Assembly (NCBI GenBank): GCA_000182565.2
Contig: KQ257459.1
DNA: 64,000 nucleotides
Direction: 5' to 3' (one strand)
Source of the DNA: Spizellomyces punctatus DAOM BR117
Taxonomy: Eukaryota
Part shown: piece after piece, positions 38,737 through 64,000 of the stretch
How the letters are laid out: every line of letters begins with the position of its first letter
Numbering within the stretch: the stretch's first letter is position 1
Notes under the pieces: generated by a model
Told to the model about the DNA's origin: nothing
The model's database searches: none
The model's input: the letters and a program-made list of their open reading frames with translations, nothing else
Translations under genes and position numbers: made by a program

Positions 38737-39582
38737 CGTCCTGTCGTCCCATACACAATGATTGAAGATTGTTTCTGTACTGATGCAATTGACAGGATAC
38801 TTCAAGCAAATCTGCAGTAACTTCGGTTTACCCTCTCATGCCGTGGTCGCTTCCTGAATCCCGCTGGACCGGTTCCTCGCCCGAAACCATCCATATCGGA
38901 CACCCTCACCATTTCCAAAGTAATTTTCGTTACCGCTGAATAACAGACTCCGGTCATTCATGCCTGAAGCGTCAAAGGATCTGCTGTCACAGGCGCACCG
39001 TTTCCCCCTTATTTCCTGCTAGTAACAAAGCCTGGTCAAAGTGGATTCGAGTCATACGGTACTGTAGTCTCGCCGCATGTATAATATCAGAAATGCGATG
39101 CTTTGATACAGATGCGGCTGGATGATTTTTCAGGGTCAAAAGTGATATTATCACGTCGTGTTTCCAACTAACGTTAATTTCGATGGCACCGTGCAAATGT
39201 GGTCATTTCAAGGACGGTGCTGCCACATTGACTGTTATGACTGGATTTAAAATGATTGAAAATATGGATGACTTTCTGATTGTTCCCGATCTGCGAGTGT
39301 TTAAGTTACTAGTGATCGGTCGATAGTGGTAGGGATCAATTTGGGATGCCATCCGGTCTTCGCCAATTTGCTATATGATTACCAACAGATTACAGAGAGA
39401 TATGATTGAACGAGATACTTCCAGTGGAACTACCATCCCGTGGCCATATTTATAATACCCTGTAGTATATTATCAGAAATCAAACATCCTATGTCCTTTC
39501 GGCTATGTACAATCCACAAGCATCACCCTGTTTATCACAGACCTCTCCACCCAACGACTTCCAAGCGAGCAAACTAACACCA

Positions 39583-42500
39583 CTAATCTGGGCCACACAA
39601 CAAGCAAACTCCGCCCAAGATCCATTTCTGTGGTCTTTCCTTTGTCTTGAGGTTGAACGTCCAAATGAACGTTGGCCCTCTTTGCCTTGTCCTATACACA
39701 GGACATTCATATACTCCTTTCGTGTCCTTCTTGTCAATGGGGATTGCCTTGATGTATATAACCGGCATAGCAGGCGTAAGCTCTTTCAGCAAACTCTCCT
39801 GGATCAGTCCAGTGTTCGTGTCCCATCGAGCTCCTTCCATAAAGAGTCCATGGATATAGGCACCCTCCCGAGGTGCACCAGAGAACTCTTCTTTAGACTT
39901 TTTGGTCACGTCCACAGAGAGAATCATTCGGTCCAGCGGCCATTCGTTCTTCCGTGCGGTGGTTTGCATGATGGCGGTTAGGAAAGATTGTGGGTTGAAG
40001 AGACCAGAGAGCCATACTACGGATGGTAGCTGGAATTCTGACACCCAGCTCTCGAGTTCTTTGATACGCTGGAGAAGATCAGCGTACCATGCCGCCAAGC
40101 CTTGAAGGGACTGATATGCTAGCTTATCCCATGATACATGGACAGCATTCATGAACAGAGAGTTCATTAGGGCTTCCATATTTTCAGTGATTGTCAGATC
40201 ACCCTTGAGACCAAGTGGAGTTCACGAATGGACCGTCGAATTTCGGTGGTAAGCATGACATTCGATCGCACTCTTGAAGAGCTACCGAAATATATGGTGT
40301 GCGCTCTTCCACCTTCGCCATGAGCTCCGCTACGTTGAATGGATCTGGAAGTGAGCCAAGGATATCCTCGATGACTTGGCCTACTTTTTCTTCCTTGCTT
40401 GTCGCCGAACCACCAGATGTGTCACGAGGTTGCATTTCCAGGATCGTACGGAACAAGGTATCGGCACTTTTCGTCAACACACCAATTTCGGCGTTTGGAT
40501 GCAGACCGTACAGGTAAGGACTCTCGGATGGCAGGTTCTCATCAATGTAGCGATGGTAATCTTTATGATCCGACGTCGGTGGCATGAGGAATCCAGGTGC
40601 AAGCTCGAAACTGCCTTCAAACATATCAGGCTGAATATATACATCCAGATACGCAGAGCAAAGTCGTCGGTCCCAGTCATCTGAAATGTGCCCACCGTAC
40701 ATGATGTCTCCAAACATGTACCGAAGATCCGTCCATGGAACTTTTGCAAAAGTCTCGAGATAGTTATATAACACGTCGACTGAGATGGTCAGATCACCCG
40801 TGCTGAAGGGATAAGGTCGGTTCCATCCTTGTGTACCAAACTTTCGTCGTTCAAGGATAGCAGCGTGGAAGTAGCAAAGAGCAAAAAGAATGCCTCGGAA
40901 TTCTGCATCCTTAGAGCATCGTTCCAAAGACTCTTGTGTGAAATTGTCGAGAGCTCTGTGGATGTTAGCTTGCATTCCTGTTGGAGGCTCGTTGGTAATC
41001 TTGATGGAAGCTTGGAGAATGGCGGTCGGGATAATGTGATAGGCGGGGTCGCCGGCTGGCTCAGCAGACAGGAATACCCTGAAATCGGGATGAGATCCAG
41101 TTGACAGTGCCTCGAGCTTCTTCTCCAAAACGGGTAGCCACTTTGCTACCAAATGAATGTTTTCCAACATGACCCATCCACCCTGTTTGTAGGCCAAGTC
41201 CAACTTCTGTTCAGCAATCACTTCTTGTCCTTGACCGAGAGACACATAGTGGTAGTTTCCATTGTCTTCTGCAACTCCAAGTGTACGTCCAAGGGCTTCT
41301 ACTTCTTTGACGGGATCGACACCAGGTGAGAGGATGAAGAAGATGGGTGTGGCAGGGCCAGATTCTTCGAAAGACCGTGGAAGCGGCACCCGGGAAGTGT
41401 TAATGTACTTTGATCCCATCTTTTGAGAAATGAAATTCCGAACCGCATACGTCATTCGATCTGGTCGCAAACAACGAAGAATGCAGAGCTTTTGCAGTGG
41501 AGTTTTGTTCTTCCATTCTTGCGGCAGTTTTTCGTTTTCAGGTACCTCCAGCTCACAATACTTCTTCCATTGTTTCGATCCGCCCTCAATATCTGACGAC
41601 AAAGATTTGAATACCTCCATGTTGGACACAGCCTTGACCATTCCCCATGAGCTATCGCTCAGCCAGTCAAATGGGCTTTTCACGTTCACAGCACGAGGAC
41701 CGCGTAAAAGGAAATCCAACTCAGGAAGATCCATGTCGCCTTGACTGATGAGGATTTGGAAAGTCATCTGCGCCAGGAAAATAAGCTTATCCCTCTCGAA
41801 CAATCCTCTCGTGGTGTAAATAAACACCATATGGGTAATAGAGTCAATCAAAGAGTTGACACGTTCTTTAATGTCGTCGCTCTTATCAGCCCGGAAAATA
41901 GCATTTTGGAAAACCACCTTGTATGCGTTGAGCGAATACTGGTACATCGGATGAATTTGCCACAAATCGTTAAGTAAAAAGTAGAGTAGGGATGAACGGC
42001 CAGCCACAGGACGGTACAGCTCACGAGTTTCGTTAATCTTCTTTTCCGTCTTTTTGGCCTCTTCAACCTTCTGCTCAATATCTGTAGCAGTGCTCTTTGT
42101 AATCTCAAGGTTCTCAACCAAGGCAGTGTCCCCAAGGAAGTTACCCTGTGCCGCAGACAATCGAGATAGCAATGCATCTTCAAGCTCAGTTAATTTGATC
42201 TTGAACTCATTCTGTTGCTTGGTTAGCTCAGCTTTTGTTTTCTCCAAATCTGGTCGCTCGACGTTGACCACATCAGCTAGCAACTGGTCTTCAAGACCAG
42301 CTAATGTGACCGTGAAATTGATAAGAGTCGTCTGGGCTTGAATCTCCGGTGGGTAATGGGGATTTGGAAGACGGGTTTGAAGAATGAGCTTGAATTTAGG
42401 GTCATATTCAACTTCCTTGTCTCCCATCTTAATATACCGCCCCTTTTTGATAGTCTCACGACCCAGCAAGGGATTAAGCACTGGATCGATGCTCTCCTGA

Positions 42501-45500
42501 ATATCTTCTATGAGGACTGTGTCTCCAGATGAAACAGCCTTCTCAATAGCATCAAGGTATCCCCTCTGGCCTAAGCGAACGACTTTTAGTCCAGGACCCT
42601 CGCGAGTCTTGATCCAGGTAACACCTTGTAACTGAGGATCAATGATAAGTGGCCATCGTTTGCAACTAGTGACCATCGTCGCGTTTTCGACAGAGACTCG
42701 GTCATTCGGCAGTCCTTCGTTGTTCCACTTGGCAATTTCCGCACTCGACGTCAGAATATCCAAGGGGTCAAGTCCTTCAGAAAGTGAGATTCTGTACGGG
42801 TTGGATTCATCCTTGAGGAATTTGAACCAATAGTCTTGCAGTAGCTCCTCGCGATATCTTTTGCTAAAGCATCCCACATAGGACACAAACGCGGCAGACA
42901 TTAAAACATCACCGGCTAGCGTCTTCTCTTGCTCCTTGAACTTTGCAACAGCTTCATTCCAACGCACATTCTCAGATGCTAAACCACCAACCAATCGGTT
43001 GGCCAGAACGATCGTTTCTTGGGTCGCTCGGGCTTCCTCTTCACACTTCAATTTGTCGGCCGTGGCCTTCTCAAACTGCGCTGTCAATTCCGCCAAGTTC
43101 CGATCCAACTCGGCGATTTTGCTTTGAATTTCTGCCAGACGCGCTTGAGACTCTTTAAGGGTTTCATTTGCCGCCTCAAGCGCCTTACGCTTGGGTTCTA
43201 CATCTCGGTACACATGGTAATAGTTGACAATATTGACGACCCAAGAGCAGAGACCAGCTGCTGCAATAGACTTAGACTTCATAAAGTCTTCGTTGAAGTT
43301 GGGGTCAGAAAGGTAAGGAGCTAGTGCTTCCAGATTGGAGGAATCGATGTTTTCTTTGTCAAAGTTGATCAAATTGTCTAAGAAAGCGTCGACCTTTGCC
43401 ATCATGTTCTTTGAGGCTTTCCAACTCCGATCTTTTGCAATCTTCCCGGGAGGACTCAGCAGGACCATGACGGCTGCTGCTACGTTTACGACCTCCTGTG
43501 AAGGAGAACCAAAGGACTTCAATTCCGTCAAGTTCGCTTTGTTTAGAGTATCCAAGGCACCCGCAGCGGCAGCTAGCGCCGGTTCAGCGGCAGCTAAATC
43601 TTTCTCAGCATCTGCCTGTTTTTCTTGCACCTCCTTGGTAATAGCATCAACTTTCTTCTCTTCCTGTGCGGCAATGGCTTTTTCTTTATTCACTTTCTCT
43701 GTATCAATGCCAACCCTTTCAATCAAGCGTTCAGCTTCTTCGTTCTTGGCTTTCAATTCAACTTCTTGAGAGGCAAGTTTGGCTTTCAAGTCGTCCACTT
43801 GGGCCGCCGTACTCTGCAACTTGGTCAACCCATTCTCTAACCGCTCCATACTTTTAGTCAATGCCCGCGCCTTGTGCTCTAACATCTCCTTGTACAGAGA
43901 AATCAGCGCTAAGAAGGATTTTGGTGTCGTGTAGTTGTACCGCTTTTCATTAATCAAGTACTTTCTAGAAACAGTGTTTACGCTCTGGTGAGCGTATGCC
44001 ATAAACCTCGTCACAGAGTTTTTGAGATCATCCGGAACAAGGTCACTTGTCGCAATGAACCGAGTCGCGACAGACTGAAGAGCTTCCTCTGGCCACTCAT
44101 GGAACCAGTCAATCATCGTACAATTAACAATGGCAGGGAACTTCCGACACCGAGAGCGTAGGGTGTTGCCGACCGGCGAGAAACAAAGGACCACTTTCAA
44201 GTTCCTTCGGACCAGTCTAATGAACAAATCCCAGCACACCTCCCGGGTATCGACCAGTCCCTGAGCCTTTGCTTCATTCCTCATGGCGTTGATAATCGTT
44301 TCCACTTCATCATCTGGGAATAGTCCGGGGATGTTACCGCTTGCCAGCATATCGTTGATGAGGACCAAAAATTTCTCATCAGCGATTTGGGAATCTGTCA
44401 ACAAGAACATGATCTGTAGCTTCTTTATTCCAGTCTTGTTATACAGTCCTGCAAGATCAGTCTTCAAGTCCGTTACGGAGTACCCTTTCTTCAGGGTAAT
44501 CTGGAAGACCTCCATCTGGCTGATGAATGCAGCCAAGCGTGCAAGTGACTGTTTTCCACTACCTCCAACACCGACCAAAAGAGCATTTCCACGAGGAGAC
44601 TCTAGTATTCGGTTGATTCGGCATACATGACTCATCGCATCTTCGAAAAGCACCAAGTTTTGAGCAGCATTCACTTCATCATACTGCATTTGAGCTTCGT
44701 CCAACAGCTTCTTCAATGCACTCCATTCCTTGATTTGACCATATTTCGGGTCACCAATTCCACTGGCAAAGTGGGTAAAGATGACAGGCTCTGCATTAAT
44801 CGCATTTTGATCCATGTCATCAAACGTCTTCTTCACAACTTCTTGCTGGAATTTTTGGAGTTGAGACCTGTCCGTTTCGTCCATTTTATCACCGTATGTC
44901 CTCATTGTCTCGTGTAGGAAGAGGCGAATAAGGTCAATTGGCTCGCGGAGCGTGTCCTTGCTCGCGAAAAGCAAGCCTTGAAAAATGTTGCTCAGATCTC
45001 GGAGATTGAAAATGTAGTGGAATTTGACGGCGGTCGGAAGGAATGTGGCTGCCACCTTCTTGTGAAGTAGAAGAGCAGCCGCTACCAGTTTCTCGCTCAG
45101 CCTTTGAATATTATTGGGGAAACCTTTAAGATGGCCTGTTAAAATCTGCAAGTAAATGCTCTGCAATGAATCAACGCCAGGGAAGTTGACGGCAAACGTC
45201 GCAAAGTGCCTCTGCAGACGTCCGTTTATGGTGAAGCTACCGGCTGTCGGGTTCATGCAGGCAACATACTGACAATTGTGAATTTCCTTCAGTGTTAGCT
45301 TGCTACGATCGTACCAGTGTTTGTAGTCAAGATATTGGCGGAGCAGTGTATGTGGAGATGCAGTGCCGTACTTGTCAACCTCTGGCATGTTCAGGTCATC
45401 CAGGAAATAGATAAGCTTCTTGGTTCCAGGCGGTCCGTAGTTTCTACCAGCCTTCTTTTCAAGTGGTTTTTCGAGAATGGCTTGCAAGGACCAAGCTGTG

Positions 45501-48500
45501 GTATAAAAGTTGAAGGGTACGTTTACAATCAACCTGTCTTCGCCGTACGAGTACAACTTGTCTTGCATTAACACCGTCTTTCCGCATCCGGCGTTTCCGA
45601 CCAGAAGTACCGGTTTACCGTTATCGGCCAGGACATCTAGCATGTACCGTAGGCGGGTTGTTTCTGGGGTGTGCACCAAAACTGCACTAAGAGGCATTTC
45701 CGGGTCATACTGGTAGGTCGGGACGCGATCCGTCCACGGAACGAAGCGTTTTGTTTCGGTTTCCACATAGTAGTCAAAGACCGTCCCTTGCACTGGGAAC
45801 TTTACAGTTTTGAATTCCGAATTCCACCATTTGCTGAACTCCACACGATAATCCACCATCTGATCTTGGAAAACACAACCCCCAAACGCCCAAACTGCGG
45901 CAAAGACAAAGTATATCTCAAACCATTCCTTATCGCACCCTTTCGGAGTGTTCTGCGGTGTCAACAGCCCTTCCAGGAGATTGCAGAGTGTCACGACCAT
46001 GGAAAACTCCTCGACACTGGCCATCTTGAACCGTCCCGATCGACATGCATCCAAACAGATATTGACGTATCTATCGAAAAGCACGCTTAGATTAGACTTC
46101 TCGGCTGCATCTTCCCGCTTGTCCAACCAGGATTGCACAAAAGGATTCCATCCCAGATCAGTGGTATTAAGGTATAAGATACCGGCACGCGAAACGGTAG
46201 CGGGAGTAGCGTACTTCAAATCGCCAATCTCGAAGATTAACCTCATGTTTGGCTTAAGAGGAATACGTTCGTTAGATGCGAGGGTCAACATCTTATTGTC
46301 GTCCATGACCGTGTTCAGAGACTCAATCCAGTTCGGGTCAATGTCACCATCAAGGATCATCCATCGAGGGTCTGTACCAGGGGTCGAGGCCAGTTCACGC
46401 ATGATGCTGGAAAATAGACCATCCTTCCATTCACGAGTTGCAGGATTGATACACCCAAAAAGATCATCAGTACTGACGGCTTTGGGGTTGAGGTCAGAGT
46501 ACACGCATTTCTTCCCCATGTTGACGTAGGTCTTCGCAAGCATCTTCCAGATTTGCGATTTGCCCGTACCACCATTACCGATAATAAAGACACAGTGACG
46601 AACTGCTAGCAGCTCCTCCAGCTGCACAACTTTGAGCACAAATACTTCTTCTGCTTGCAGCCCGCTTTCAAGTGTCGCTTTTCGAATCTGGTCCTCGAGC
46701 TTCTCATCTCTTTTCCGTGCGACTTCTACCTTAGGGAACAAATCGCCAATGAGACCGTGGAATACCTGCAAATCATCGGAGACAATCTTTGGCAAGTTGA
46801 AATCACGTAGTGCACGCATAAGAACATGCTCCTCAGGAACATGAGGGTCGGCACGCTTCAAAGCACCGGCGACGACAAGGACGGACTTGATGGCACGCAA
46901 ACCCCAATCGTAGTGGTCTTGTTTTGACAGCAACTCTTTGTTAAGTTTGTAAAGAGTATTGAACTTCCGCGCCAAGGAGCTGGCTTCCACGAAACCTTCA
47001 GCCATAAGCATGATTTCCATAATGAGCTCCAGGTTGGGCACTACCATCGAGCAAGGACGGAATAGAGCTTTGATATTCTCGGGGAGCTCGGTACGACCAG
47101 CGTATCCAGGGTTCATAGTAATGAAGGCACCAACAGTGGGTGTCAATCCAATCTCCTCTCCCTGGAAGATGAACCTCTTTTTCTTTGCTTTTAAGGCGTC
47201 TTGAATGGATTTCACCTGAGTGGCAATGACAGACAGCACCTCAACAGAGATACGGTTGAACTCATCGAAGCAGCCCCATGCACCAGATTGCGCAAGACCC
47301 TTGAAGATGTTACCGACAGACTTGTAGTCCATCTGCTCGGAACAATTGAAGACGTAAACCATGATACCTAGAGCCTTTCCTAAATCTTTTGTGGTTTCGG
47401 TTTTTCCCGTACAGCAGGTCCAGCTGGCGCACCACCCATGATCAGGTGCAGAGATTGGGTGAGAGTAATGTAACAACGATCTGTGAGCGATGTGACAACG
47501 AGACGAGGCGTATTGCCAAGGTACTCGTAGTTGTAGCGGAACATGGCATCACAAATGTTGATCAAACAATCGTTCTGATCTTCATCCCATCGGAGACGTA
47601 GTTGTGACTGCCATGAGAACACTTGCGCACTGTCCGCCTTCTCGGAAATGAGCTTTGCAACGATATCACGAGCATGGACATCGAGCGTACACACTGTCAT
47701 AATCATCTGACGACTCAATTTGGTCAACTCCCCTTGAATGAGAGTGATCAAGGCAGTCAGTTGATTGACTTGCTTTTTGTAGTAGTCTTTGAGGGAATTT
47801 TCATAGCCTTCTTCCAATCGACTAAACGCCACATTGACTTCCGTCGTCCACCAGATCTGTGTGCCAGCCAAGGTGATCTGAGCAGGATAATCAAATATCC
47901 ACTGCTCACGAGGTTTCTCTTCGTATGCCGAGACAGCCTCTCCAAGAAGTTGTCGAAGCGTTCGTCTCATCATATCCACCAACCGGTTCAGCCACACTTC
48001 AACTGGACCAGTACATTCACAGGGCTCGACAAACTGCACATATTCGTCTTCCCTAGAGTACATTCCAATTGCCGTTTTGGTGATCTCCCCGTTAGGCCCT
48101 TTTTCAAATTCCAGCTGAGCAACACTATCAAATAGCTTTCCAAGGTGAACCGCCACCGCTTGTGGCATATTGCCCTTCGCCAAGATGTCCAACAAGTCCG
48201 ATGCCGACACAAAGTAGAAACGGGGAAAGGCGAGTCGCTTGGTTTCGAGATATTCCGCCAAAGATTTTTCGCACAGAGCCAACTGACCCTGCAGATTTTC
48301 AAGCTTCTCGAAGAGACCTTCTTTTGTACATGCTTCGACGCAATTCGGGGTCTTAGATGCTTCCTTCATGAGGTCCTTGTACGCGGAATCGATAGAGTCA
48401 AACCGCCGTGAGTCCTCGGGGAGCTGAGCACGANNNNNNNNNNNNNNNNNNNNNNNNNNNNNNNNNNNNNNNNNNNNNNNNNNNNNNNNNNNNNNNNNNN

Positions 48501-51500
48501 NNNNNNNNNNNNNNNNNNNNNNNNNNNNNNNNNNNNNNNNNNNNNNNNNNNNNNNNNNNNNNNNNNNNNNNNNNNNNNNNNNNNNNNNNNNNNNNNNNNN
48601 NNNNNNNNNNNNNNNNNNNNNNNNNNNNNNNNNNNNNNNNNNNNNNNNNNNNNNNNNNNNNNNNNNNNNNNNNNNNNNNNNNNNNNNNNNNNNNNNNNNN
48701 NTAGTCGCCCCGGTCCCACCATCACTTTAACATCGTCTTCGAATTTGTGCAATTGAAGGCTAAGCAAATCCTGGAATTTCATGTCCGCGGTCATAACAAA
48801 CGTAACACCCGTTGTCTTCATCAGCTGTTTCCAGTGACGGTCCCTGATAGCGCTGCTACGGAGCTCTCCGACCGCTCTCAACGAGGTTATCATGTCTTTG
48901 ACCATCTGATCAAGGCCGGAATAAACATCCCAGGCCTTGATCTCTTTATCCATTCTTCGAAGCTCTTTGGTAAGGTCACGACAGCGCGTTTCCATTGCAT
49001 CAGTGTCGATGGCGGTCCAAAGCGTGGTCCGCCACTCTTCAAACATGAGAGTCACGAGGGAAACAACGTCCCAAACAGACTTGAGCATCCCAATATCCCG
49101 ACGGCAGTCGCCCAGTTGACGGTAAGTGGGTACATTAAGCTCAAACAATTCGCAAGAGTTCTTTAGAGCTTTAGCTTCGTTCTCCATTGCCAACACGTCC
49201 ATGTGGACAATATCAATGAGTTCATACGCTCGTTCTTGTCCAACATCAAACTTGAATGGCGCCTTTTTGCGGAATTCCTCTCTGAAATTATGGTTGCGGA
49301 CTTCGAACTTGTTGCATTTTTGCTGCAATATGTCCACCTCCTTTGCCTGCAAGGGGGCGACGTGGTCCTTGATGGAGACGGAGAGCTTTTTGACTTCAGA
49401 CCATTCTTCGGGAAGGTCGTTCAACAGCTTGTGAGTCTCCTCCGGCATTTCTACGCCAAACTGCCGTAAGAAGTTGATGGTCTTACGAAGCGGCTCAAAC
49501 ATTCCATCAATGCTTAAAGTACGATGTTTAATCGCGTGCAAAAGTCCCATAGCAGACACAAGTGCGTCGTAGTCTCCTTCTTTAATTTCCCGCTGGAGCC
49601 CCTTTTTGTTGATCTTAACAAACTCGTTGAGCTCGTTCAAGCTCGAGATGGCATCGTCTTGAAGATGTTTGGTCAAAGTGTAACTCCACTTTTTAACCAC
49701 CACGTTCAGGGCTTGCTTAAGCGGTCGAGCATCAATGCGGAACCATCCTTGGAAAATCACTTCTGGTTCAATCCCCATGACCTGTTTATGCAGAGACTCA
49801 AACTTGCGAATTTCGTTTTCAAACTTTTCGAGCTTGCTGGGATGCTCTGGTTCGGCAGCTTTTTCCTCATTTTGGGATTCATCATCCCCTGTTTTTTCTG
49901 ATGTCTGGAGGAACTGTTTCATGTATTCTTGGCGATTCTCGGTCCATAGCCAGGTAAATTGATCATATCCATCCTTGTAGACAACACTCTGTTCCATGAT
50001 CTCTCTCACATGTTCCAGAATCAAAGTGCGCAAACGGATCAAGGTTTGATCACGACGCATTTCACCCAGGTATGTCTCGTTTTCCATGTTCATCTGAGCA
50101 AGCTGGCGTGCACGGAAATCATCTTGATCAGAATCTGAGGCGTAGTCTTCATCGCTGTGAACGTCGCTGTCAGAAACGCCATGCCCCGCTCCTTCAGATG
50201 CCTCGTTTGTACCGTTTCCAAGAGCTGCTCCATTAGCAGCGTCTGGAGTGGCTGGAACAGTAGGTAGGTGTCCTTCACCAGGTCCGGCAACAGGCTCTAC
50301 ATCCTTGGCAGGGGCAACGCGGCCCATCAGAGAGGCACAATCGTAAATGTCTTCTAGAAGGTCGTTGATAATATAGGCCAGACTGTCCTCCGCATCTGAA
50401 AATTTCACAAACTTTGTGAGCTCCAAAACAAATGGACTACTTCCAACTTGGTTCTCACCTTCGTCCATGTTCGGTGTAAACACCAAACTCTCACCCTGAA
50501 GCTCCAATTTCGCCTCCAAAAGTGGTCCTAATTCACCGAGTCTCTCCGATTCCATATTCTGAGTGATGTATTCCAGACTGGTTTTGAGCGTCTTCCAGAA
50601 GCCTTCCTTGACTTGCCCATCAATAAACTCCTGGTACCGAATCCATTCCTCAGACTCTTCATTGGCATGAACAACTTCTCTCGTTTGGGCAAGTAGTCCG
50701 TGGATGGATTGACCATCCCGCTTAATGGAATCGTAAACAGTCGATAACCGGGAGTCCTTCTCCTCCAAATTCAATAGCTTCTTTCCATCTTTGCGCTCAA
50801 CCAGCGGATTGGCGCTCCAACCTTTCATAATCTTTTGAATTTGGTTCAGATTGTTCTTCATCAACTGGAGAACAGAGGAAAGATCTCCAACAGAGGTGCC
50901 AATTTGTCCAATGTAAGATTCAATATCGCCAGACGTCCAATTGAGCGTCGTAAGGGCGTGCTCAATTTGCCCATCAATTTGCCGAATCCGCTCTTCAATA
51001 AGCGGTCTCTCCACCTCCAAGACCCCGGTGCGTATACCATTGTAAGATTTGGTAATGTGGTCAAGTTGGAAGATGTACTTTCGGAAAACATCCGATTTGG
51101 AGTAGACTGCTACGGCAGCTGGTGGGGGCTGCACGGTAAGTGCCTCAAAGTATCGAACTTCTCGGAGAAGGGCAACGACTTTGGGATCAAAATTAACCTT
51201 CAGCAGCCCGTCTTCGCGGACGAGCAGTGGTTTTTGAAGGTTGGTTTCTGACTCGTCGGTGATGGTATCGCTCCAGCGGGTGAAGATGCTACGCTCATAG
51301 TTTTCGAGGGTCTCATACAAGCTCTCGTACTTGGTTTTGACGAGGTTGGCATCTTCAGTGTTCATAGCACTGTGATTAAACTACAAAGAGACGACCGTTA
51401 GATATACGCTTAATCTTGAACAATCAAACCAGTACGTACGCTTTTCAGTTTCTCCATTGCTTTGGTGATACGGTCTTTCAACTCATGGACCCAGGCAACG

Positions 51501-53447
51501 GCACCCGTAACAGGGGCCATATTGTAGTGGATTGGAGGCTGGCTCTTATACTTGTTGAAAATTGCAGCCACATCGTCCAAATCATCCGAGTACATATTCA
51601 ACAAAGCAAAATACTTTTTCTCAAAGTCTTGCTGAATGACTGGACGACTAAGCAAACCGGCAAAAGATTCGAGCAGCCGGAAGCAGGAGTTCAGACCAGA
51701 GCAGTCATCAAAACTCTGGCTGAGGATGGTACCCAAGCGACGATCAAGGTCTGCAATCTTTGCATGAAAATGGCCCAAGTCGATTTCAAACTCGTTCAGG
51801 TTGAGATCCAGGACATCATACTTGAGTTTACTAAATGCCCCTAATGCCGATGTAAACTCTGTAAAAATCTGCGCAACCTGCGAACTTAGAATCTTTCCTT
51901 TCGTCCCTCCTATTTCGATTTTCTCCAGTCGGTTGAACTCGATGATTGTGTCAAATAGCTCCACAATCTGCTGAACGCGCCCCAAGAACTTGTCAAGTCT
52001 CGCAAATACAAGCTTGATATCAAAATTCCATGGCCGCTTTGTTTCTGCTGTCTGTGCCTTGTATTCGTAGTACGTCTGCTTAAACACATCGCAGACGCGA
52101 ATAACAACCTTGAGTCGTTCCGCAGCTTCTTCAGGCTCTGAGCTGAAAAGCTCGGAAGGTTGGATGAAGTTACGGGCTTGCTCTATGATGTCATTACAAA
52201 TTTCTTGGAGGACGACGGTGAGACGGGGAGGAGTGTTATAGTACTTGGAATGCCTCCAGATGAGCACGAGGGTATGCATCATGCCAGGGAATACTTGAGC
52301 AAGCTCTACAAAGTCGTTGACCGAATTCAGTCGTTCTACTGCAGGTCGCAAGGCACGGAGATAGGTAGTAATGTCATTTGCCTCATCCAGCGCTGTTAAT
52401 TATCATGTGAGATTGTGATAAAGATTATTCCACTAAAAGAGAGGCAACATACCAGCGACGACTTCATCAAAAATCATCTTAAAAGCCGGGTAGTAAGTGC
52501 TTTTGCTGACTTCTAGCAGCTTTGAGATCTTTTGGATTTTCTCATCAGTCAGTTGCTGATAAATAGATTTCAGATTGGCCGCTTTGGCTGCCCAAAAGTC
52601 AATCTCCACCATAGGGCCTGGATTCAACCCTTCTTCAAGAGGTGCAGCGGAGCTGCTTTTGATCACCTCCTTAATCTGATGTGTCCAGTCAATTACTGCA
52701 GATTCCAAGGTGTGCAGGACACTCCGATCAACATCCGTGGTCAGACGTGCTCCATGCGGAAGGGGAAGCATTGTTTTGCCCTATAACAGTGAAGTTCTAG
52801 CAAGCAACATATACGAAGAACCTGAACGCCCTATCTACCTTCGATTTGCCTGAGATGACATAGACAGCCCCATTGAGTTGATGGAAGTGGCGCAAGACAT
52901 CATTTGCAACGACTTCCGGCCAAGATTCCAAGTTCTTAGGGTTGGTTAAAAGTGGCAAGTAAACCTCTTCGAGTAACACCGAGAGAAACTCCAAAGGGTT
53001 GGCTGACAGATCCCCCATGGTGAGTTCCGTGTCCAATTTCTCCGTGATAGGTGCTCCCACGTTGTGTTTCAAAAAATACACAGACTTCTTTTTAAGAGAT
53101 CCTGGGAAAGCAATGGCTGGGAAGAGATCTTCCTTTTGTGTAAGATAGAAGAGAATAGTACTGTAGTCCTTGTCAAGGAAATCCACGATGGTTTGCCTAA
53201 ATATCGCACCATCAGCGAGTGCAAAGTCCTGTAAATTCATAAATGGTAGCACTTACACATTTTCCGGTGTCATGAGCATCTTCTTCCATTTGTCATTCTT
53301 GACTTTCAATGCTGTGCAAACCTTCTCTTCAAACCATGCAACACGCCCATCGATATGCACGACAGGTGCAGCAGCATCGTCAGCATCTGCATCCTTCCCT
53401 TTCTTTCCAGGGGTAGTAGGTTTTGTGGCCGTGTCTTCCGCCGGCAT
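39583..53447 (-). CDS. Axonemal dynein heavy chain, outer-arm beta type (DNAH9/11/17-like); contains a gap and frameshifts
   Basis: Tail [76 protein letters not shown]; stalk; terminal [20 protein letters not shown]. Confidence 0.95.
48434..48701. other. Assembly gap within the dynein gene
   Basis: Run of N. Confidence 1.
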
Positions 53448-54256
53448 GACGGACGTGGCGGAACGGCGTAAAGGTCAAACTAACGTGATAATCTCCGTAT
53501 TTGTCGTTGTCGGGAATGTAGGCTATAAAATTGGATGTCTACAACTGGATGGACCAGCATCCACCGTAACAAGTCGTGGGGGCAGATATCGTCCGGCGAT
53601 CTGCAACAGATGGAGGATGAAGAGTTGAATAGAGGACGGGGAGACACGTACTCCGGTATCCCAGCTTGGGATGTGGTAATCAACGCAGCAAGTCCGACGC
53701 GTTCAGATCATGCTTACTAGATGATGCCGCTAACTTTCGACTTTGGGGCTATAAGCGCACTTTACCACCCTTTCATGACTTGGAACTTGTTGGAGCTGGA
53801 GGTAAGAATTTCCACGTTTGTTTGTAAAAGCTGCTCTCCGATCCATGCTCAGCTGCCACAAAAGGGCCGTACTTTTGTCAGTGGTCGGAGCCATTTCCAG
53901 ACAAGGGACGAGTTATTTTTGCTGCACACGCTACTTCAAATTCCTTACGCACAGCTTTTGAATGAGTAGTTGCACTTGTTATTCTATGATTTGTATTGCC
54001 ATGTATAATTGCTTTATCTTAACGGACGCTTTAGAAAACTCCACAGCAAAGGTCCCTTCGTACATAAAATTGAGATTTTATACATATAGTGCATTCCGAA
54101 AATTAAACGTAAGGGGTGCTCGGCACTATTGTAAAGAATTGCCAAATAAAGGTCTAAACTCAAACCCGAATCTCATCTTCTCTGTCTACATCCTTTCCTG
54201 TTGATGGGGCACCAGCAGCAACTGTTGATGGAAATACATCAGATACAATATCAGCC

Positions 54257-56312
54257 TTAAAAAGGAACCAATGTCGTCGCACCTTTATCATCGGGCAAAG
54301 GTAGATTCTTCATTGCCAGCAGGCATCCAAATATTGGTATCAACACACAGAGCGACACAATATTGATTCTCTTTGTAACATATGTGTAAGCATCGCTAAT
54401 ACCGGGATATTCTGCCAAAGATTCGCGGGCGAAAGTGACGTCCCCAAGGATCTCTGATAGCGCATCTGCAGGAATCCCATTGGCGGCAAGTTGGTTTGGC
54501 ATCATGTTGGTCCACATAGATCCTGCAATGGCGCTGCCGATGGCGCCTCCGATTGCCGCGATACTGAGATATATGCCTGTAACGATACCAACATCTAAAT
54601 TTGCAATGGTGAGCCAAAACATTGAACGGACAGGTTCAGCGGTAACGAAGCACCAACCTTGATGAGGGACAGCGGCCTGCGCTCCAACCTGCGTGGCACA
54701 GGTAATCATCCCAGCACCTAACCCAGCCAGAATTTGCGAAAAGACAATTTCGACCGCTGCGTTCTCGGGACCTCTGAAGTTCACCATCAAACCGTTGCCA
54801 ATCATATTGATTGCGACGCCAATATATGCCCAAATGAGAAATCGTTTATGGAACTTCATGACAAGACCGAGAAGAATGGATGACCCCACAGAGGCAAACA
54901 TCCAGCCGTTCGTGATCCATTGCGCCTTGTCAAAGTCAATTCCACGAGTGAGGTAGAGATAGGACGTCAGATATGAGTTGTACAGGAACCACGACATGAA
55001 GATGAAGAAGACAGATAGGAGACCGCCAAGGACGGTACGGTTTTTGATCATTCGAACAGGAACGATGGGGTATGTGGCAAAGTACTTTTCCCAAAAGATG
55101 AGTAGTACGTGCAGAACGACACCAGAAACGATCATTGCAATAACGGATCCTACGGAAATCATATTACGGTTAGACACCGGGGGCAAGCATGCAAAAATCA
55201 AGTGACTCCAAGCATACCACTTCTCCATCCGTCGTCGTAAGATGTCGCTCGTAGCAGCGGGAACAGTATCAAAGACCATGCACCGGCAAGCAGAAGCACA
55301 CCGACGAGATCCATTCCCATAACCAACTCCATAACAAAATTCTTATTCCATTGGATAGCCGGTCGGACTTTGCCGAGTTTTTTTGCTTTGTGCTCAGCAT
55401 GCCACAGTCCACCGATGACCAGAGCTGATACGACGGGCATGAGGATGATCATTATACCCATGGTCCAGCGCCAGTTGTCGGGAAGGAAGGCAACAGCATA
55501 GATGGGTCCAACCCAGGCGTTGATGATGAAGGGAAAGTCGGGGAGAGATGATAGAAAACCGCGATTGGCAAGTGTAGTGGTATCTGGAAAGCATCGTTGA
55601 ATGAGTCAATACTTAAATGCCCTGACAGGTGTACGGACATCCGACAAAAAGATAGCTTACCAGCGATGATCAGCTGTTGCATCATGTAGATACCGGATGT
55701 TCCGATGCTATACAAAACAGATGCTCCCTGTATCCAGCAGAAAATATAAGCAAAGCGAGATTACAGCAGGAATCGGCGGGCAATTTAACTCACCGCAAAT
55801 CCTGAATAGTTTGTTACAAGACACATTGTAATGTATCCCACGATATAGCACACCAGACTAAAAATATAGGCTTCCATACGTCCGAATGTATCGGCAAGTT
55901 TGACGATGGGGAACTTGGATACAGCGTTGATAATTTGGTTGATGATTGGAAGGACGGTTAGCATGGAGTGGGCGGAGAAGGAACTTGTGATAAAAGGCTC
56001 GAGTGTCCAGAATGATTGTCCGTCAAGACTGGAGATGTATGCAACTAATAAAAGACTACAACAGCGGAGAGACATGAGCTATGGGCAATACACAGCCAAA
56101 ACAGCCCATATTGTGACTGTGTTGGTCGCGCTGTATTTTCAGCAGAAAATCTCTTACCCAATGTACATGACCCAAAAGTCTACCTTGCCAAAGGCGGTCT
56201 TGATGGCCTCTACATTTTTGACACCAGCTTGCGTGGGCACTGGTTCACTGGATGTCGAATCCGTGTCAACCATGACTTTGGAGGGTGCATGTTGAAGAGT
56301 TGCTTCCGACAT
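54257..56312 (-). CDS. MFS siderophore-iron transporter (SIT/ARN family), multi-exon
   Basis: SSFSAHSML..INAVSKFPIVKLADTFGRMEAY, IIADTT, NWRWTMG, MDLVGVLL, QAAVPHQDVGIVT..IGGAIGSAIAGSMWTN; about 14 TM segments. Confidence 0.85.
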
Positions 56313-57065
56313 GCTTGCAGACAGCAAAGGCTCAAGACTGGAGCGAGGACTGGGAGCTTGAACTTGGGAGGACCGAGGGTATCTCATCAACTGACCATGT
56401 ATTTATAAAGGATTTCAAAAGTCCCCTTTTCTGGTTTGAAAAGCAAGTAAATGCTCTATTTATTAGATGGTTTATATGGTTTTTTATTTGCAACTCCCTG
56501 CTAGAGCGGGATGAAGATGAAGTCTGAGGATTGGAGAGTAACTTCCGATCACACATCTTTTTTCAATCGGAAGTCTGTCCGGTTTAAAGCTGAAATCCAG
56601 TTGGGCAACGCGTCCGAACGGAAGCCGTCCAATCCGGAATTAAATTTAAAGTTTCGCTCACAAACTTAAACCCGTAATTACATTCACGCGCTAACCTTAA
56701 ATTCCGATCGCCGGAAAAGTGCCGGGGGGTTTCCTGCAAAAGAACTGCCTTCACACGGCCCCGCCCATCATCCAATGGGTTGAGTACGCCAATTTCTGAG
56801 TAAGCGTGGCGTGTAAACGGTCAGGCGGATTGTTTGAAAAGGACCAACACTTTGGAAAAAACCTGGCTGAGCAAGGGGGGCCTGGGATTTACAAGTACTG
56901 CTCCTAGGGGACCTCCCAAGGATACAGGTTATAACTTGTTTTGGGCGCTGGATAGCAAAGATTACCCGCCCGCCATTCGCACATCTATCTGTCCATCTGT
57001 CCAGGATATATAGAATATGATACATGTCCAAATTATATATGACACACTTTCTAGATTACAGTGTT

Positions 57066-60000
57066 CTAGCTGGTCCCTCTCATGTCTATCGTTTGCTGCT
57101 CAACCATAGCCCAATATTTTCCTTTGATTGTCATGAGTTCTGCATGCGTCCCCTGCTCCGCGACCTGGCCCTCCTCGAGAACAAAAATCTGATCAGCATG
57201 TTGCACGGTCGAAAGGCGGTGTGCGATAGCAATAGTCGTACGGCCAATGCAAGCCTTGGATAATGCATCTTGGACGAGCTTTTCGTTTTCAGAATCTAGC
57301 GCAGATGTTGCTTCATCCAAGAGGAGAATCTATAGGACAAAATTTACAAGGTTGTTATGATCGCGGTTTCCAACTTGAATTCAGAGTGATAAAAATCACG
57401 CTAAAGGTACTACTTGCCTGTGGGTCGCGAATTAATGCTCTTGCGATTGCAATCCTTTGGCGTTGTCCCCCACTTAACCTTGCACCCTTTCCCCCACAGT
57501 CTGTGTCATATCCATCTGGCAAGGACATGATAAAGTCATGCATGCCAACGTCTTTGCATACCCTAATCACATCATCCTGCGTCGCATCGTCCCGATCTGT
57601 GCCAAGAAGGATATTGAAGGCGATGGATCCTTGATAAAGCGCCGGTTCTTGGTTCACCAGTGCAATGCGATGGCGATGAGAGCGAATAGGTAGTGTAGAA
57701 ATTGCTTTGGAGTCGACCAGGATTGTTCCACTTGAGGGATCATAAAAGCTGAAAATCGTCATAAATAAGGTGAGGTCTCGCAGATTTTCAATATGAACGA
57801 GGTGGCACACTCACCGCTCGATAAGGCCAAGAACAGTGCTCTTCCCACATCCGCTCCCGCCCACGAGCGCACAAAAAGATCCAGCCTCAACCCGTAAACT
57901 TAGCCCTTTTAGCACCTCGGTGTCGGGGTTGGTGGGGTAGCTGAACCGTACATCATTTAGCTCGACACTACCAGCTCCTGCCACTTCGTTATAGAGTGAA
58001 TTGCTTGTGTCAGATTCGGTGTCAATTTTTGGCCGCATGTCCAGTATACGAAAGATGTTGACCGCTGCGAGCTTGGCTTTGGTGATATCAGGAGCCAATG
58101 AAAACATTTGACCACACGTTTGTGCGCTGAAGAGAAGTGCCGGTAGGACGACAAAGAGCTGTTTTGAAGTTGCTTCCCCTTGACTAACGAGCCGTGAACC
58201 CCACCTTTAAATACGGTTGTCTGGTTAATCAATGAGGACTTGCAGTATACGGAATATCAGAGTTTCATTAACTCATTACCAGTATGCAAGTCCATAGAGA
58301 AGGTAGGAAACCGTATATGCGAATGCCAGCCAAAAGTTCCCCTTCATAATGGTGCGCAAACACCCTGCATAAGCTTCGCGCAACAGTGAACGGTATTGGC
58401 GAAGGACATCCGCCTCCCTTCCGAGGGCTGCCACAGTTTGAATGGCTCCGACAGCTTCACTTGCAATGGCAGACGATCGGACATATGCTGTTTGGTGCAG
58501 TTCCTAATGGAGTCCAAGTTTGATTAAGAAAGGTAACACTTGCTCGTTCACCGGAATGGAAACGCACATAGAAATCCTCCACGATTTTCACCCGAAGATA
58601 CCCAGCACACAACATCACCGGAACAGCCGTAAGAATCACAATTGCAATCTTCCATGACACAACGAGTGCCAGCACGACAGAAATAATCATATTCGTGCTA
58701 ATGGAACAGACAGTGCCAATAACAACGCCAGTAAGGCCGCTAAAATGGTTGCCATCCGAGTCGAGGGTGGCAGTGATGGTGCTGGGCGAGGTTTCCGCTG
58801 ATTCAAAGAACTCGATATCCTGACGAAGCAGATTGCTGGTAGAAGGTTTGTCAGGGTTGGAAAACACACCGCTGGTGGTTAAAGTTTAAGAGCATTGTAA
58901 GAATATCGTACCGAATTACTTTGGCTCGCACGCGATGTACCATAGTTTCCGAGACCCAACCGAACGCAGCTCCACTAACAAAGTAGGCAACAAACTGTGC
59001 AACGCCGAAGACGAGAAACACTGGGATACAGAAAAGAAGAGTTTCGTAAAAACCCCATCATAGACTTATGCGTGACAGAAAGCTTACGAGCACTATAAAA
59101 CTTTGCTCGACTGAGAACATGATCGGGATCTCCGTCCAAGCTCAAAGAATCAACCAAGTTTGCAAACAACACTGCTTCCACTGACGAGGCGCTCCCAATA
59201 ATTACGGATGCTAAGTGTAGAGGGTTAGAACGCAACACTACAGAGGATTAGGAAAGAGTAACATTACCCAGAAGGCCAATGATGATCCACTTTGTTTCGG
59301 GACTGCTCATCCTCGCCACACGTCGCATTAGCTTTGAGGTACCAATACGCCCAATCTTGTTTCCCAATCCTGGTTGATTTGCTTCTTTGTCTACTTCCAA
59401 GATCTTGCAATCAGTTTCATCTGGCTCTTTTACAACGGTAATCTCATCCGTGCTTGCTGATGCTTCGAATGTGTGGAGAATTTTATTGATAGAAAGGTCC
59501 CCATCATCGTTCAAGCCGGAGGCTGAAAAAGACTGAGCCTGCACAAGGTCATAGTATGCTCCCTGACGGCGCATAAGCTCATTATGCGTTCCTTGTTCCA
59601 CAATTTTGCCGTTAGACATGACCATAATGTTATCCGCATTCTTCACTGTCGCCAGGCGGTGTGCAACAACGACTGTTGTCCTTTGCTTTGAAACACGATC
59701 TAGTGCCTGCTGGACCAGTCTTTCACTGCGAGAGTCGAGTGCAGATGTTGCCTTGTCAGAGTTGGAATAGTTGTTTTGATTAAATGTGAAGAGAAAGTGA
59801 ATTCCCCCGTGGCAAACAAGATCATTACCTCATCTAATAGAAGGATTCTCGGATTGCCAACCACTGCCCTAGCGATAGCAATCCTCTGCTTTTGCCCTCC
59901 ACTTAACCCAGCTCCTCCTTCGCCGACAATCGTCTGGTAGCCTTGGGGTAATCCCTTGATGAACTCGTCCACATTCGCAATTTTTGCTGCTTCCAAACAC

Positions 60001-61704
60001 ATTTTTTCCTTGAATTCTGCAGATGCATTTGCAAAGGGTGTATTTATGAGTCCGTGCCCAATGTTGTCAAGAATCGACGCTTGGAAGAGCGTGGGGGTTT
60101 GCATCACGACTCCCATGTGGCGGCGGACACTGTGAACGTTCAAACGTGGGAGTGGTTGATGATCAAGTAAGACAGTCCCGTTAACAGGATCGTAAAACCT
60201 TTGTAAAAGGGATACTAATGGGATGAACGAACTCGGTGATGAGTATCATGATCCCAATCAAAGACCAAGCGAAACGATGTACAGACCAATGGTTGACTTT
60301 CCCGAACCCGAAGCCCCTACAATAGCAGTAATCTTTCCAGGTGGTATTTTCATCGAGACACCATCCAACACGGTAACGTCTGGCCGACTTGGATAGACAA
60401 ACTTTACACTTTTCAGTTCCATCTCACCCAGACAGTCTGTCACCGGTGTGCCAGCGTTGGGCGAAGAGTCGATAGCGGGCGTTCGATCAATGGCGCTAAA
60501 TAGGCGACTGCCGGCGGCCGCGGCGAAGGAAAACGTCTGAATAAATGGTGCAAATTCGCCGACTACAAGGGAACCTGTTCGATAAAGTACCCAACGTCGT
60601 CAACCACCACCTCAGCAATAAAAGGCCGCCATACAAAGGAGTTGCATTATGTAACTTACTATCCAGGACTAGAAAAATAACTGTATACACCGTTCCTGCA
60701 CCCTCCACGCTGTCTCGCACAATCATTTCCGCCCCCTGCCAGAAAGCCAACGCATTCCCGCAATAAGCGACGAAAAATATGCCACCCAACATGACGGCAC
60801 CGGCGACTGCTTTCTTTACCCCCCATTTTTTTCCTATATCGAGATACCCAGTGTATGCACCAGCAAGCCTGTTTTGCGAGTTAAAGGCTTGGACAACACG
60901 GATATTCGAAAACATTTCTTCCGCCAACGACCCGGCGTTGGACTGGCAGTCTGATGCACGAATTGCATATTTCTCAATGAAATTGGTGCAGAGCGTTACA
61001 ACGAGAGTGAAAGCGGGGACAACACAGAGGAGTATGGCGGTCAGACGGGCGTTCTTGGCGAATCCCACTGCAAAGGCTGAGATCAAGTATGCGATGGATT
61101 GCAGGTAAAGTCCGACCTTTTCTGACGTTCCGTTTTGAATTGTCTGAATGTCGGCCGTCATACGGTTGGTAACTTCACCGGGGGTCGTTGTATCAAAGTA
61201 TGCAATATCCTGACCTAATGTTGTCTTCAAGTACTCTTCCCTTAGCTTTCGAGTGATGCGCTCTCCAATCATGCTCCAGCACACTGAGCAGATGTAAGTA
61301 AAGAGGAAAAACGCAATTGTTACACCTAAGAGGATGCGGAGCTTCAAATTGACAGTGTTTTTGAAGTTGGTCGAAGCTTCTGGCGATAGCGGTTCGCCTT
61401 CTTTGATTTCTGCAAACTCGTTGATCAGTTCCCCAAAAACGATTCCCAAGATGGGAAGGGGTGGCCCGGCGGCTAGTCCAGAGAGGGTTCCTATGAGGAT
61501 GAGGAAGTAGTCTGTGGCTGTCGAGTACTTGAATAAACGGAGGTAGCCGAATCGCCCAGCGCCGGAAGTATCAAGACTTTGCAGCGAGTCTTGCTGCTGT
61601 CGAACAATTTCTTGCTCGCCATTAATAGAGACTGGATTGATTTTAATATCTATTGGAGCATTGGCAGAAGGAGGAAAGGACGATGCAGATTTTGAGTCGT
61701 CCAT
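57066..61704 (-). CDS. Full-length ABCB (MDR/P-glycoprotein) transporter, multi-exon
   Basis: TMD-NBD-TMD-NBD layout: [75 protein letters not shown]. Confidence 0.95.
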
Positions 61705-62710
61705 CTTTGTCCAGGAATGGAGCTTTCCTGTATATCTGCGACAAGGTGCACCAAGTACCTACAATTCTTGTACTGGACACGCTAGAGTAAACTCATATAT
61801 GATTCTGCATGAAAATGATAATGTATTGGATCGGTATAGTCATTTGTCGGGAGCCTTGGTGACGACGTCCATCTTCGGAACGTCGCTTTCAAGACGGCGA
61901 CCATTCCCGAGAAAAAGAAAAAAATAAAAAATAGAAGAAAGCGACACTAAAACTTAATCGACCATCGGGAAATGCAAGGTCGAACACGGTGATAAAGTAA
62001 GCTACGACCCGATCGGGGAGCCGCGGCCAATCGCGCATCTGCGGGTTTCAATTGCCTGGCTTTTTCATACGACTTTTCATAGCACCATATTTTTTTCCTT
62101 TCCTTTCCTTGTAACGCATAGTTGTCTTTCAGAGACGGGAATGCAAAAGAAGCAGAAGGAATGAATTCATATGCAAATTCCGATGGCCAGTGGTACTTGG
62201 GGTGAAACTCAAAGTTGCGGTCGGGTTTTTTACTTCCGATGCATTTGAGATGGTTGGACAGATAGTCTTCCAAGTGCTTTCTTTTGACAAGACACGGCCA
62301 TTCGGGCTTGCAGTTCCAATCAGTTTTTGTCAAACCCACACACGAACATACCCCATCTCTGCTTATAGCCAAACTTATTACCTGGTACATTAAAAAGTTG
62401 TTTGTTCAGATCCGTGGGTGTGCAATGGCATTTCAAAGACATCACCCGACATTGTACATCTTGGTTAGCCAGCCATTTTTGCCCACTGGTCGCAATTGAC
62501 TTCATCTTTTCCGGATCTGCTGCGGATGCACATCTCCAATGAAAGCTCATCGCAGCATGATTCTCCAGCAAAAGCATCCAGTTTGATCTTCCGCCATGTC
62601 CATGATGTCGTCTCATGCAAGAGCCTTCAGCTCCAATATTTCACTTCAGCGTTTCTCACCTGCCCTAATCATCCAGTTCTTGATATCTTGCTAACTTTAC
62701 GCCCCGAATC

Positions 62711-64000
62711 ATGTCGTCCCAAACCCAACAAGCGATCAACTATCGCTCTCCTCGCATTTTGACCCAAATTGGATGGACAACTACGAAAGCCCTCAGATTG
62801 GCTTGTATCAATGCATATGGGGACGAAGGTGATGTCGTTGCTTCCATTGCCCATGTCGCTTGGAAGATCTTCGTTGGCAAAATCCCAAAGGTTAGATTCG
62901 ATTTTGTCTCGCTGCAGGAGAAGATCATTGAGAGATGTCATCATTTTCATACTTACAATGTCCAGACTGCTGCATATCGGCACCTAATAGCCAATGCACA
63001 ACAAGAACTGGAGAACAATGCTCAAGGAGAGTGCACTGCGTATGGCGAATGTGCAGCAGATGCAAATGGACGTCCGCTGCAAGCCGCTTTTCGTGTCCTT
63101 CAACAGAATAGTACGGATGAGCCCATACCTAATGTACAGGTTAGAGCGACATGCCAAAAACAAACTTTGAGCACCATACGACCCACCTGCACTCCCCTAA
63201 CGTGTCATTAACATACCGTCTTTCTAGACTCATATCGTGCTCGAAATGCTCCTCAACGAAGACACATTTGAGTTCCGCGCCATCCTCCACTCGGAGGAGA
63301 TTTCCGACGAGGCTGGAATAACAGTCCTGCGCGAATTAACAAACATAATGCGTGAGATCATCGACATACCCGAAGCAGCAGTAAGATTGCCTGCTAACAG
63401 TACCGATAGTGACCTTACCGCGAGCCTGTTTCCAAACCTCACCGGGAAGATCCATCACCGTGGACATACCGTCAGCCTTGACGCAGTTTCGCACACTTCA
63501 TTCATCATTAAGGACTTGGACGGCCACCTCCGAGCCCTCGAAACCACGCCTGAAACGCTCGGTAAAGCCGCTTGGGCAAAGCTTCTTACTCACTACACTG
63601 GGGAAAACGAGGCTGAATTCGGGTTACTTCGGGGTGACAACGACTGTATTGTCCCAGTCCAGCTTTCTCTAGATGAGATAGACAACAATGTGGCCCTACT
63701 GCAAAAGCTGATGGAACAGGAGCAGGTGGCCAGGATAGACTTAATAGATCGTAGATGTGAGACCCTGCTGCAGTATGGAAGGACGCCCACAGCTATCAAG
63801 TCTCACGGGGTGAGTTTTGACCTTTCAGCTCCCAGCATTCGTATCATGCCATCGCTGTGCTAAAGAAATCTTTTAGACTATCCTCCACTTGATCATGCAC
63901 CCAACAGATGAAATCGATCAGTTCAAGCTCACCGTTCATTATAATGAGAAGCTGTTGCCCCGACGACAAGCCATGTTGCTGCTTCAACAATTTGAGCACG
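62711..64000 (+). CDS. 5' end of a probable non-ribosomal peptide synthetase (degenerate condensation-domain segments); runs off the window
   Basis: Exons 62711-63139, 63228-63809 and 63877 to the end splice in frame. AAWAKLLTHYTGENEAEFG and YNEKLLPRRQAMLLLQQFEH resemble the second half of NRPS C domains. No A domain is visible within the window. Confidence 0.65.

Follow-up and report, generated by a model that had tools for sequence, protein, structure and literature searches.

The ferrichrome synthetases are a clade of non-ribosomal peptide synthetases (NRPSs) which the accessible passages of published papers describe as occurring in Dikarya only. All members of the family have a non-linear domain organisation according to the available text of PMC10192304. 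The accessible part of PMC2644324 distinguishes Types I–VI, with one to four complete modules of an adenylation (A), a thiolation (T) and a condensation (C) domain plus T-C units lacking an A domain; a hexamodular ancestor, proposed by Schwecke, is cited and supported there. The clade is already known outside Dikarya, since A domains of the SID clade have been reported from Basidiobolus and Conidiobolus (PMC7466969). Here we describe a cluster of three genes in the chytrid Spizellomyces punctatus DAOM BR117, located at the right end of a 64,000-nucleotide stretch of contig KQ257459.1 (G000:C10:310001–374000, hereafter the window); a further 40 kb past the right end were read for the remainder of the NRPS gene. 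The NRPS has six complete modules and fits none of Types I–VI. We consider it probable (roughly 0.68) that the cluster is a hydroxamate-siderophore module with a predicted colinear product, export and re-uptake, and an NRPS which became six-modular secondarily. Such a six-module layout has long been predicted and appears to be unreported for the ferrichrome-synthetase family in the literature searched. That literature, in which subscription journals and survey supplements were little covered, held no description of a chytrid ferrichrome synthetase or of a six-module family member, and a term search of the main text of PMC8887899, as far as accessible, gave no passage on siderophores or NRPSs.

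As the original prediction had proposed, a SIT/ARN-type gene of the major facilitator superfamily (MFS), an ABCB-type gene and a divergent NRPS gene lie side by side, following a dynein heavy chain gene at the right end of the window. The three-gene cluster is real and intact. The gene for the SIT-family siderophore-iron importer is located on the minus strand at 54160–56387, as supported by Pfam, placement of the stored protein P0418, Atlas, homologues and RNA. It is separated by an unstranded spacer (56388–57065; open reading frame (ORF) map and RNA 3' pile), comprising the SIT upstream region and the 3' end of the ABCB transcript, from a putative full-size ABCB (P-glycoprotein-like) exporter gene on the minus strand (57066–61704; Pfam on exon ORFs, PDB search, RNA 3' reads). 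The unstranded region 61705–62710 is, from gene orientation, the divergent promoter of the ABCB and NRPS genes and probably shared by both. The plus strand from 62711 to 64000 holds the 5' end of the NRPS gene, a degenerate half-condensation region with introns at 63140–63227 and 63810–63876 (gene model, profile, orthologue P0241). The cluster, with putative roles in synthesis, export and re-uptake, contains only these three adjoining genes: the 3' side of the NRPS gene is a region of short ORFs, followed by squalene synthase as the next recognisable gene.

The NRPS gene runs from 62711 to G000:C10:394659 (window-equivalent 84659), with only its first 1.3 kb inside the window, and encodes 7,049 residues in 13 exons. 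Twelve predicted GT-AG introns join these into a single stop-free frame with the domain order c-(A-T-C)x6. Pfam detects AMP-binding, PP-binding and Condensation domains six times each, in order, so that the A and T domains which the original prediction expected beyond position 64000 are indeed present, each kind in six copies and together with as many C domains. Motifs A3/A5/A7/A8/A10, GxDS and HHxxxDG are complete in all six modules, and the gene is intact. A phase-0 intron is present at the identical spot near the C-domain end in every module, modules 4 and 5 have an additional intron at the A10 motif in common, and the protein ends right after C6. The two NRPS ORFs inside the window have no Pfam match. 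Against a profile of the half-C region found at the N-terminus of ferrichrome synthetases they score 53 bits; the condensation-like motifs noticed earlier in the window thus correspond to the C-terminal half of a condensation domain, which is degenerate and has no HHxxxDG. In length the N-terminus is roughly double that of most relatives; it may contain two half-C stretches, both of them with a phase-0 intron where the C domains have theirs. An interpretation of the doubled half-C as a trace of a lost module 2 was not supported: the second half matches many C-lobes as well as N-termini, and only about 5 bits were obtained for the first. An orthologue with the same architecture from Spizellomyces sp. 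'palustris' (P0241; 90.7% identity over 6,977 residues), together with the axonemal-type dynein heavy chain adjoining the cluster, agrees with the flagellated host that had been proposed.

The NRPS belongs, according to domain trees, to the ferrichrome-synthetase clade. Its A domains fall into a clade with NPS2, Sib1 and Fso1 with support 100 (111 rows) and its C domains with support 98 (152 rows), the outgroups comprising 28 A rows and 25 C rows. C6 groups with terminal C domains (support 100), and there is no thioesterase. Of the two types suggested in the original prediction, SidC and SidD, the NRPS is of the SidC/NPS2-like one and not of the SidD-like one. With a T-C query, 1,809 proteins were retrieved; of the 120 matches listed, all with an organism name are fungal, and many are labelled SidC, NPS2 or ferrichrome synthetase. 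In an unrestricted search with the NRPS, the top seven of the best 150 matches (24 of which were assigned an organism name) are all chytrid. The top chytrid relatives are P0241, Rhizophlyctis rosea P0242 with six modules and 41% identity, and proteins from Phlyctochytrium arcticum, Nowakowskiella, Gaertneriomyces, Dinochytrium and Powellomyces. Including Thoreauomyces, Fimicolochytrium and Cladochytrium, relatives of the ferrichrome type occur in ten chytrid genera from at least four orders. Counting the query, six complete modules within the ferrichrome clade are found in three proteins or models among the best 150 (the query, P0241 and P0242); the remaining six-module rows scored lower, and the three of these that were included in the trees are not members of the clade. 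Four chytrid proteins (P0244, P0246, P0247 and P0252) contain a decayed A domain, as a remnant or missing altogether, at differing modules. In Dikarya, Saitoella coloradoensis P0419 has five A domains in the order ATC x4, TC, ATC and has kept the module-6 A domain, of which Lipomyces P0319 contains a remnant; these two proteins are Dikarya traces of the predicted hexamodular ancestor.

The enzyme shares with NPS2, SidC, Sib1 and Fso1 the A and C domain clade, the terminal cyclising C domain, the hydroxamate-type pocket and the N-terminal half-C, as well as the presence of SidA and an acyltransferase in the genome. It differs in having six A domains instead of one to four, in modules which are not one-to-one orthologues, and in the absence of A-less T-C units, so that there is no apparent need for inter-module loading. 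By its description in the accessible text of PMC10192304, Acremonium persicinum Sid1 (ASP2397/AS2488053) is similar in being colinear, in its six A domains, in dedicating three modules to hydroxamates and in its non-small backbone residues. The same text assigns Sid1 an evolutionary origin separate from the ferrichrome family, whereas the chytrid enzyme falls inside that family; Sid1 is compared here by description. In the ascomycete clusters of SidD/NPS6 with SIT and ABC transporters (PMC6563098, available part), the NRPSs comprise one to two modules, used iteratively. The chytrid transporter pair, in contrast, accompanies a ferrichrome-clade enzyme, and the chytrid cluster contains no acyltransferase.

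The history of the modules was analysed with domain trees and approximately unbiased (AU) tests on 63 A and 61 C rows, selected from 139 and 177 by omitting near-duplicates, two long degenerate A rows and most outgroups. In the A tree, A1 is found with the Dikarya A3, while A2 and A3 fall with the hydroxamate domains that come first and second in other chytrids. A4–A6 group together and with Saitoella A6, and C3–C5 form one group; a quick mixture-model tree gave the same module groups. One-to-one module orthology with Dikarya was rejected for both A (log-likelihood difference 127, AU p=3.6e-6) and C domains (137, p=2.7e-4). A model in which the modules correspond to 3, 4 and 5, followed by C5-A6-T6 three times, was not rejected (AU p=0.33 for A, 0.27 for C). 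Identities between modules are highest for A4–A5 (58%), A4/A5–A6 (53%) and C3–C4–C5 (41–43%); a division into two similarity groups, modules 1,3,5 and 2,4,6, was not found. In the module-4 clade, all five domains of the duplicated lineage have departed from the A4 code, by 2–5 of 9 positions, compared with 0–1 of 9 for seven of the eight domains from other chytrids; the five shifts count as one event, since kin share labels.

From these data we infer that the NRPS is secondarily six-modular, having been rebuilt by duplication and not inherited intact. It would descend from modules 3–6 of the enzyme of the chytrid–Dikarya ancestor, with loss of modules 1–2. The [C5-A6-T6] unit would have been triplicated, and the module-4 A domain freed thereby, perhaps also that of module 5, would have changed its pocket. 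The hypothetical hexamodular ancestor resembles the NRPS in its six complete A-T-C modules and three hydroxamate-coded C-terminal modules, and differs in that the modules of the NRPS map to ancestral 3, 4, 5, 6, 6, 6. Other parts of the ancestor are kept by Dinochytrium, Gaertneriomyces, a paralogue on contig C8 of S. punctatus (see below) and Saitoella. Between them, chytrids and Saitoella have retained distinct A domains of modules 4, 5 and 6, a comparative finding which, on the basis of the trees, directly supports the predicted ancestor.

The A-domain codes obtained by alignment are DVFDFIAISK for A1, DVYELGAIGK for A2, DVSDIGAINK for A3 and DVFDVGAIGK for A4, A5 and A6 alike. The last of these agrees with the FgNPS2 hydroxamate code (PMC2644324, Table 2) at all but 2 of 10 positions and is identical to that of the module-6 A domain of S. 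coloradoensis P0419. A4–A6 are therefore predicted to be hydroxamate-type pockets. A1 carries the bulky I301 and D240, as does the Gly-type module 3 of NPS2, and probably loads a small, Gly-like residue. All 15 pocket residues are identical between the query and P0241 in each of the six A domains. The predicted product is a cyclic Gly-X-Y-tris(hydroxamate) hexapeptide. In the proposed colinear assembly, with one A domain per residue, A1 would load the Gly-like residue, A2 and A3 two other residues and A4–A6 one hydroxamate each, and the terminal C domain would cyclise the hexapeptide. A single-sequence AlphaFold model of A3 was discarded (pLDDT 32).

Several observations count against this interpretation. 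About 10 of 15 positions in the A2 and A3 pockets are still shared with hydroxamate pockets of Dikarya, and the switch proposed for A3 is weakly supported because module-5 codes vary widely, also in chytrids without the triplication. The 10-residue code is stated to have failed for the ferrichrome-synthetase family in the accessible text of PMC2644324. As regards the module history, placement of A1 with module 1 was not rejected in a single-clade test (p=0.56), nor was that of C3 with the Dikarya C3 (p=0.62, versus a poor quick tree). The AU tests used LG+G4 with one search per tree, deep branches are short, the duplication model was framed after the first tree had been seen, and gene conversion could mimic a triplication. 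Finally, the SIT and NRPS matches of Rhizophlyctis are located on different contigs.

The best of the alternatives, possible though in our view unlikely, is that hydroxamate- or ornithine-type residues are still the substrates of A2, of A3 or of both, resulting in four or five hydroxamate arms per ring instead of three. A2–A6 are all members of the hydroxamate A clade (support 91–93), A2 and A3 retain G301, A322 and I330 besides the pocket similarity just mentioned, and the hydroxamate codes of characterised enzymes differ widely. However, A2 has gained E278/L299 like Gly-type A1 domains, which its pocket matches as well as it does hydroxamate domains; the code shift accompanies the triplication; and the Rhizophlyctis orthologues of A2 and A3 clearly differ in the pocket (5.5–6.1 of 15). 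Only a single hydroxamate-making gene was found, which leaves little reason for three codes loading one monomer, and Fe(III) is already saturated by three hydroxamates. If four or five arms were nevertheless correct, five of the six modules would derive from hydroxamate-loading ones and retain hydroxamate- or ornithine-type substrates, the chytrid would secrete a cyclic hexapeptide of a siderophore class not found in the literature searched, and the NRPS would be the first fully colinear enzyme of its family, which would thereby be older than the chytrid–Dikarya split.

The hydroxamate-making gene is located elsewhere in the genome, on contig C8. A single ORF without introns (G000:C8:77430–79556; L007:1444–3573) encodes an ornithine N5-monooxygenase joined to a GNAT acyltransferase, with matches to PF13434 (E 8e-101) and PF13523 (E 4e-51). 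It is the only match in the genome to PF13523 (Acetyltransf_8), and there is one strong ornithine monooxygenase match. The expected SidA and acyltransferase are thus both encoded, as a single fused gene outside the cluster. The fusion protein would make N5-acyl-N5-hydroxyornithine, probably the acetyl form, for the NRPS of the cluster and for a second one. This second ferrichrome-clade NRPS gene (G000:C8:57707–76016; L010–L012) is arranged head-to-head with the fusion gene and apparently has five modules, with a 1.8-kb assembly gap at 58793–60621. Its codes are, in order, Gly-type, Ser/Ala-type and three times hydroxamate-type, and in gap-free stretches it matches P0130 (source label Spizellomyces punctatus) with 96–99% identity. 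It has no accompanying transporters and may make a ferricrocin-like storage form. Two more multi-module NRPS genes (G000:C5:19500–38100 and C8:1401600–1415500) have far lower scores versus ferrichrome-type profiles.

The exons of the SIT gene match MFS_1 in Pfam, and P0418 (596 residues) aligns to window positions 54163–56387. In Atlas, the protein lies closest to the cluster 'MFS siderochrome iron transporter 1' (score 1.00, TM 0.87), and the 25 homologues include named SIT/MirB proteins; comparison of a SIT exon with solved structures gave no match. SIT transporters have 14 transmembrane helices, and a crude hydropathy scan detected 11 segments. By sequence and fold the gene belongs to the SIT family, and its function in ferri-siderophore uptake is putative. 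The gene extends past 54257: its last intron (54222–54282) is spliced in 18 RNA reads and poly(A) starts near 54040. A second SIT-like gene (G000:C1:89068–90810) is 35–46% identical to it. SITs from chytrids are already on record (PMC10500206, available text), and the importer alone is therefore not new. The ABCB protein, described from exon-level ORFs with approximate exon borders and length, has the Pfam order ABC_membrane, ABC_tran, ABC_membrane, ABC_tran, corresponding to two pairs of transmembrane and nucleotide-binding domains, and its closest solved relative is P-glycoprotein (E 1e-62, PDB search). A table in the accessible part of PMC4692070 contains a siderophore-cluster-associated ABCB subgroup. 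The ABCB transporter would export the product or its breakdown products, and the SIT transporter would import the iron complex.

A somewhat less probable alternative sees the product as an intracellular iron store or an antagonistic mimic such as ASP2397, the ABCB transporter serving self-protection or export of breakdown products. Ferricrocin is an intracellular siderophore (PMC10192304, available text), AbcB is cited for excreting siderophore breakdown products in the accessible text of PMC4692070, and non-small residues X and Y would be reminiscent of ASP2397. Against this, the NRPS gene adjoins both an exporter and an importer gene, an arrangement kept in two other species (in S. palustris and P. 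arcticum, SIT and NRPS share a contig and their accession numbers differ by two), and the second ferrichrome-type NRPS could supply a storage form.

Both transporter genes are transcribed. In RNA run X7, of which about 6% was read (953 reads placed, 3'-biased library, the stretch covered ending short of the NRPS 3' end), 3' read piles were found for SIT (depth 57) and ABCB (depth 30, bin 56812–57212). Runs X1, X2 and X5 are unspliced contigs and uninformative on expression. HGATAR is the SreA-type iron-regulon motif; it is not in excess in the window (155 sites versus 159.6 expected), with one site upstream of SIT and three in the divergent promoter. CCGAT occurs 15 times versus 4.7 expected in three siderophore promoters (three in 56388–57065, six each in 61705–62710 and L012:1300–2459), which is not significant after correction (p=0.065), and is a possible regulator site. 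Analysis of promoter repeats revealed nothing remarkable.

The original prediction left open horizontal acquisition or ancient retention; ancient fungal inheritance is favoured by the sequence comparisons. Transfer of the NRPS or the whole cluster from bacteria or Dikarya is improbable, although an A-domain search returned mainly bacterial proteins and the spread looks patchy, with no Mucoromycota or Zoopagomycota among 20 named matches of the unrestricted search. The A-domain search sums scores over several A domains (limit 2,975 residues) and is swamped by multi-module bacterial proteins, whereas in the trees nine bacterial and Mortierella rows fall outside the ferrichrome clade (support 100). 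The C-domain intron present in every module has its counterpart in exon breaks at that spot in the C8 paralogue, GC content is flat (about 0.47–0.50), and relatives are found in four chytrid orders. Moreover, chytrid module-1 A domains branch outside the group of ascomycete and basidiomycete ones, and a single clade of all chytrid A domains was rejected (p=2e-4), which indicates that the module duplications predate the chytrid–Dikarya split, or an equally old transfer. Still less credible is a six-module ancestor kept module for module (A1–A3 Gly/Ser/Gly, A4–A6 hydroxamate): the architecture is exactly as predicted in the accessible text of PMC2644324, with three identical C-terminal hydroxamate codes, and A1 with module 1, taken alone, is tolerated, but the joint one-to-one constraints fail for A and for C, A2 with module-2 domains (p=0.02) and A3 with the Dikarya A3 (p=6e-5) are rejected, C3–C5 cluster together, and A2 and A3 are without the NPS2 module-2/3 pocket residues.

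Among the neighbouring genes, the squalene synthase (L003:6086–7177) and a Zn2Cys6 transcription factor (L004:3285–5876) lie 3–13 kb downstream of the NRPS gene, and nothing was seen tying either to the cluster. On the other side, the axonemal-type dynein heavy chain gene occupies window positions 39583–53474, with an assembly gap near 48400–48700. The ORFs at 34091–38835 resemble a carboxylesterase and, next to it, an ABCG half transporter, and we take the long single ORFs at 22001–23698 and 29914–30693 to resemble SelO and a heme-thiolate peroxidase.

If inheritance was vertical, the hexamodular ancestor predates the chytrid–Dikarya split. The NRPS of the cluster would also illustrate the opposite process, a colinear assembly line rebuilt by duplication in which former hydroxamate domains were freed to change their substrate, and a new siderophore structure is predicted for its product. 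The decay of A domains at differing modules in P0244, P0246, P0247 and P0252 may represent a series of natural stages from which to trace how inter-module loading arose. A transformation method has reportedly been published for Spizellomyces, and its six-module NRPS may serve as the colinear control for studying such loading.

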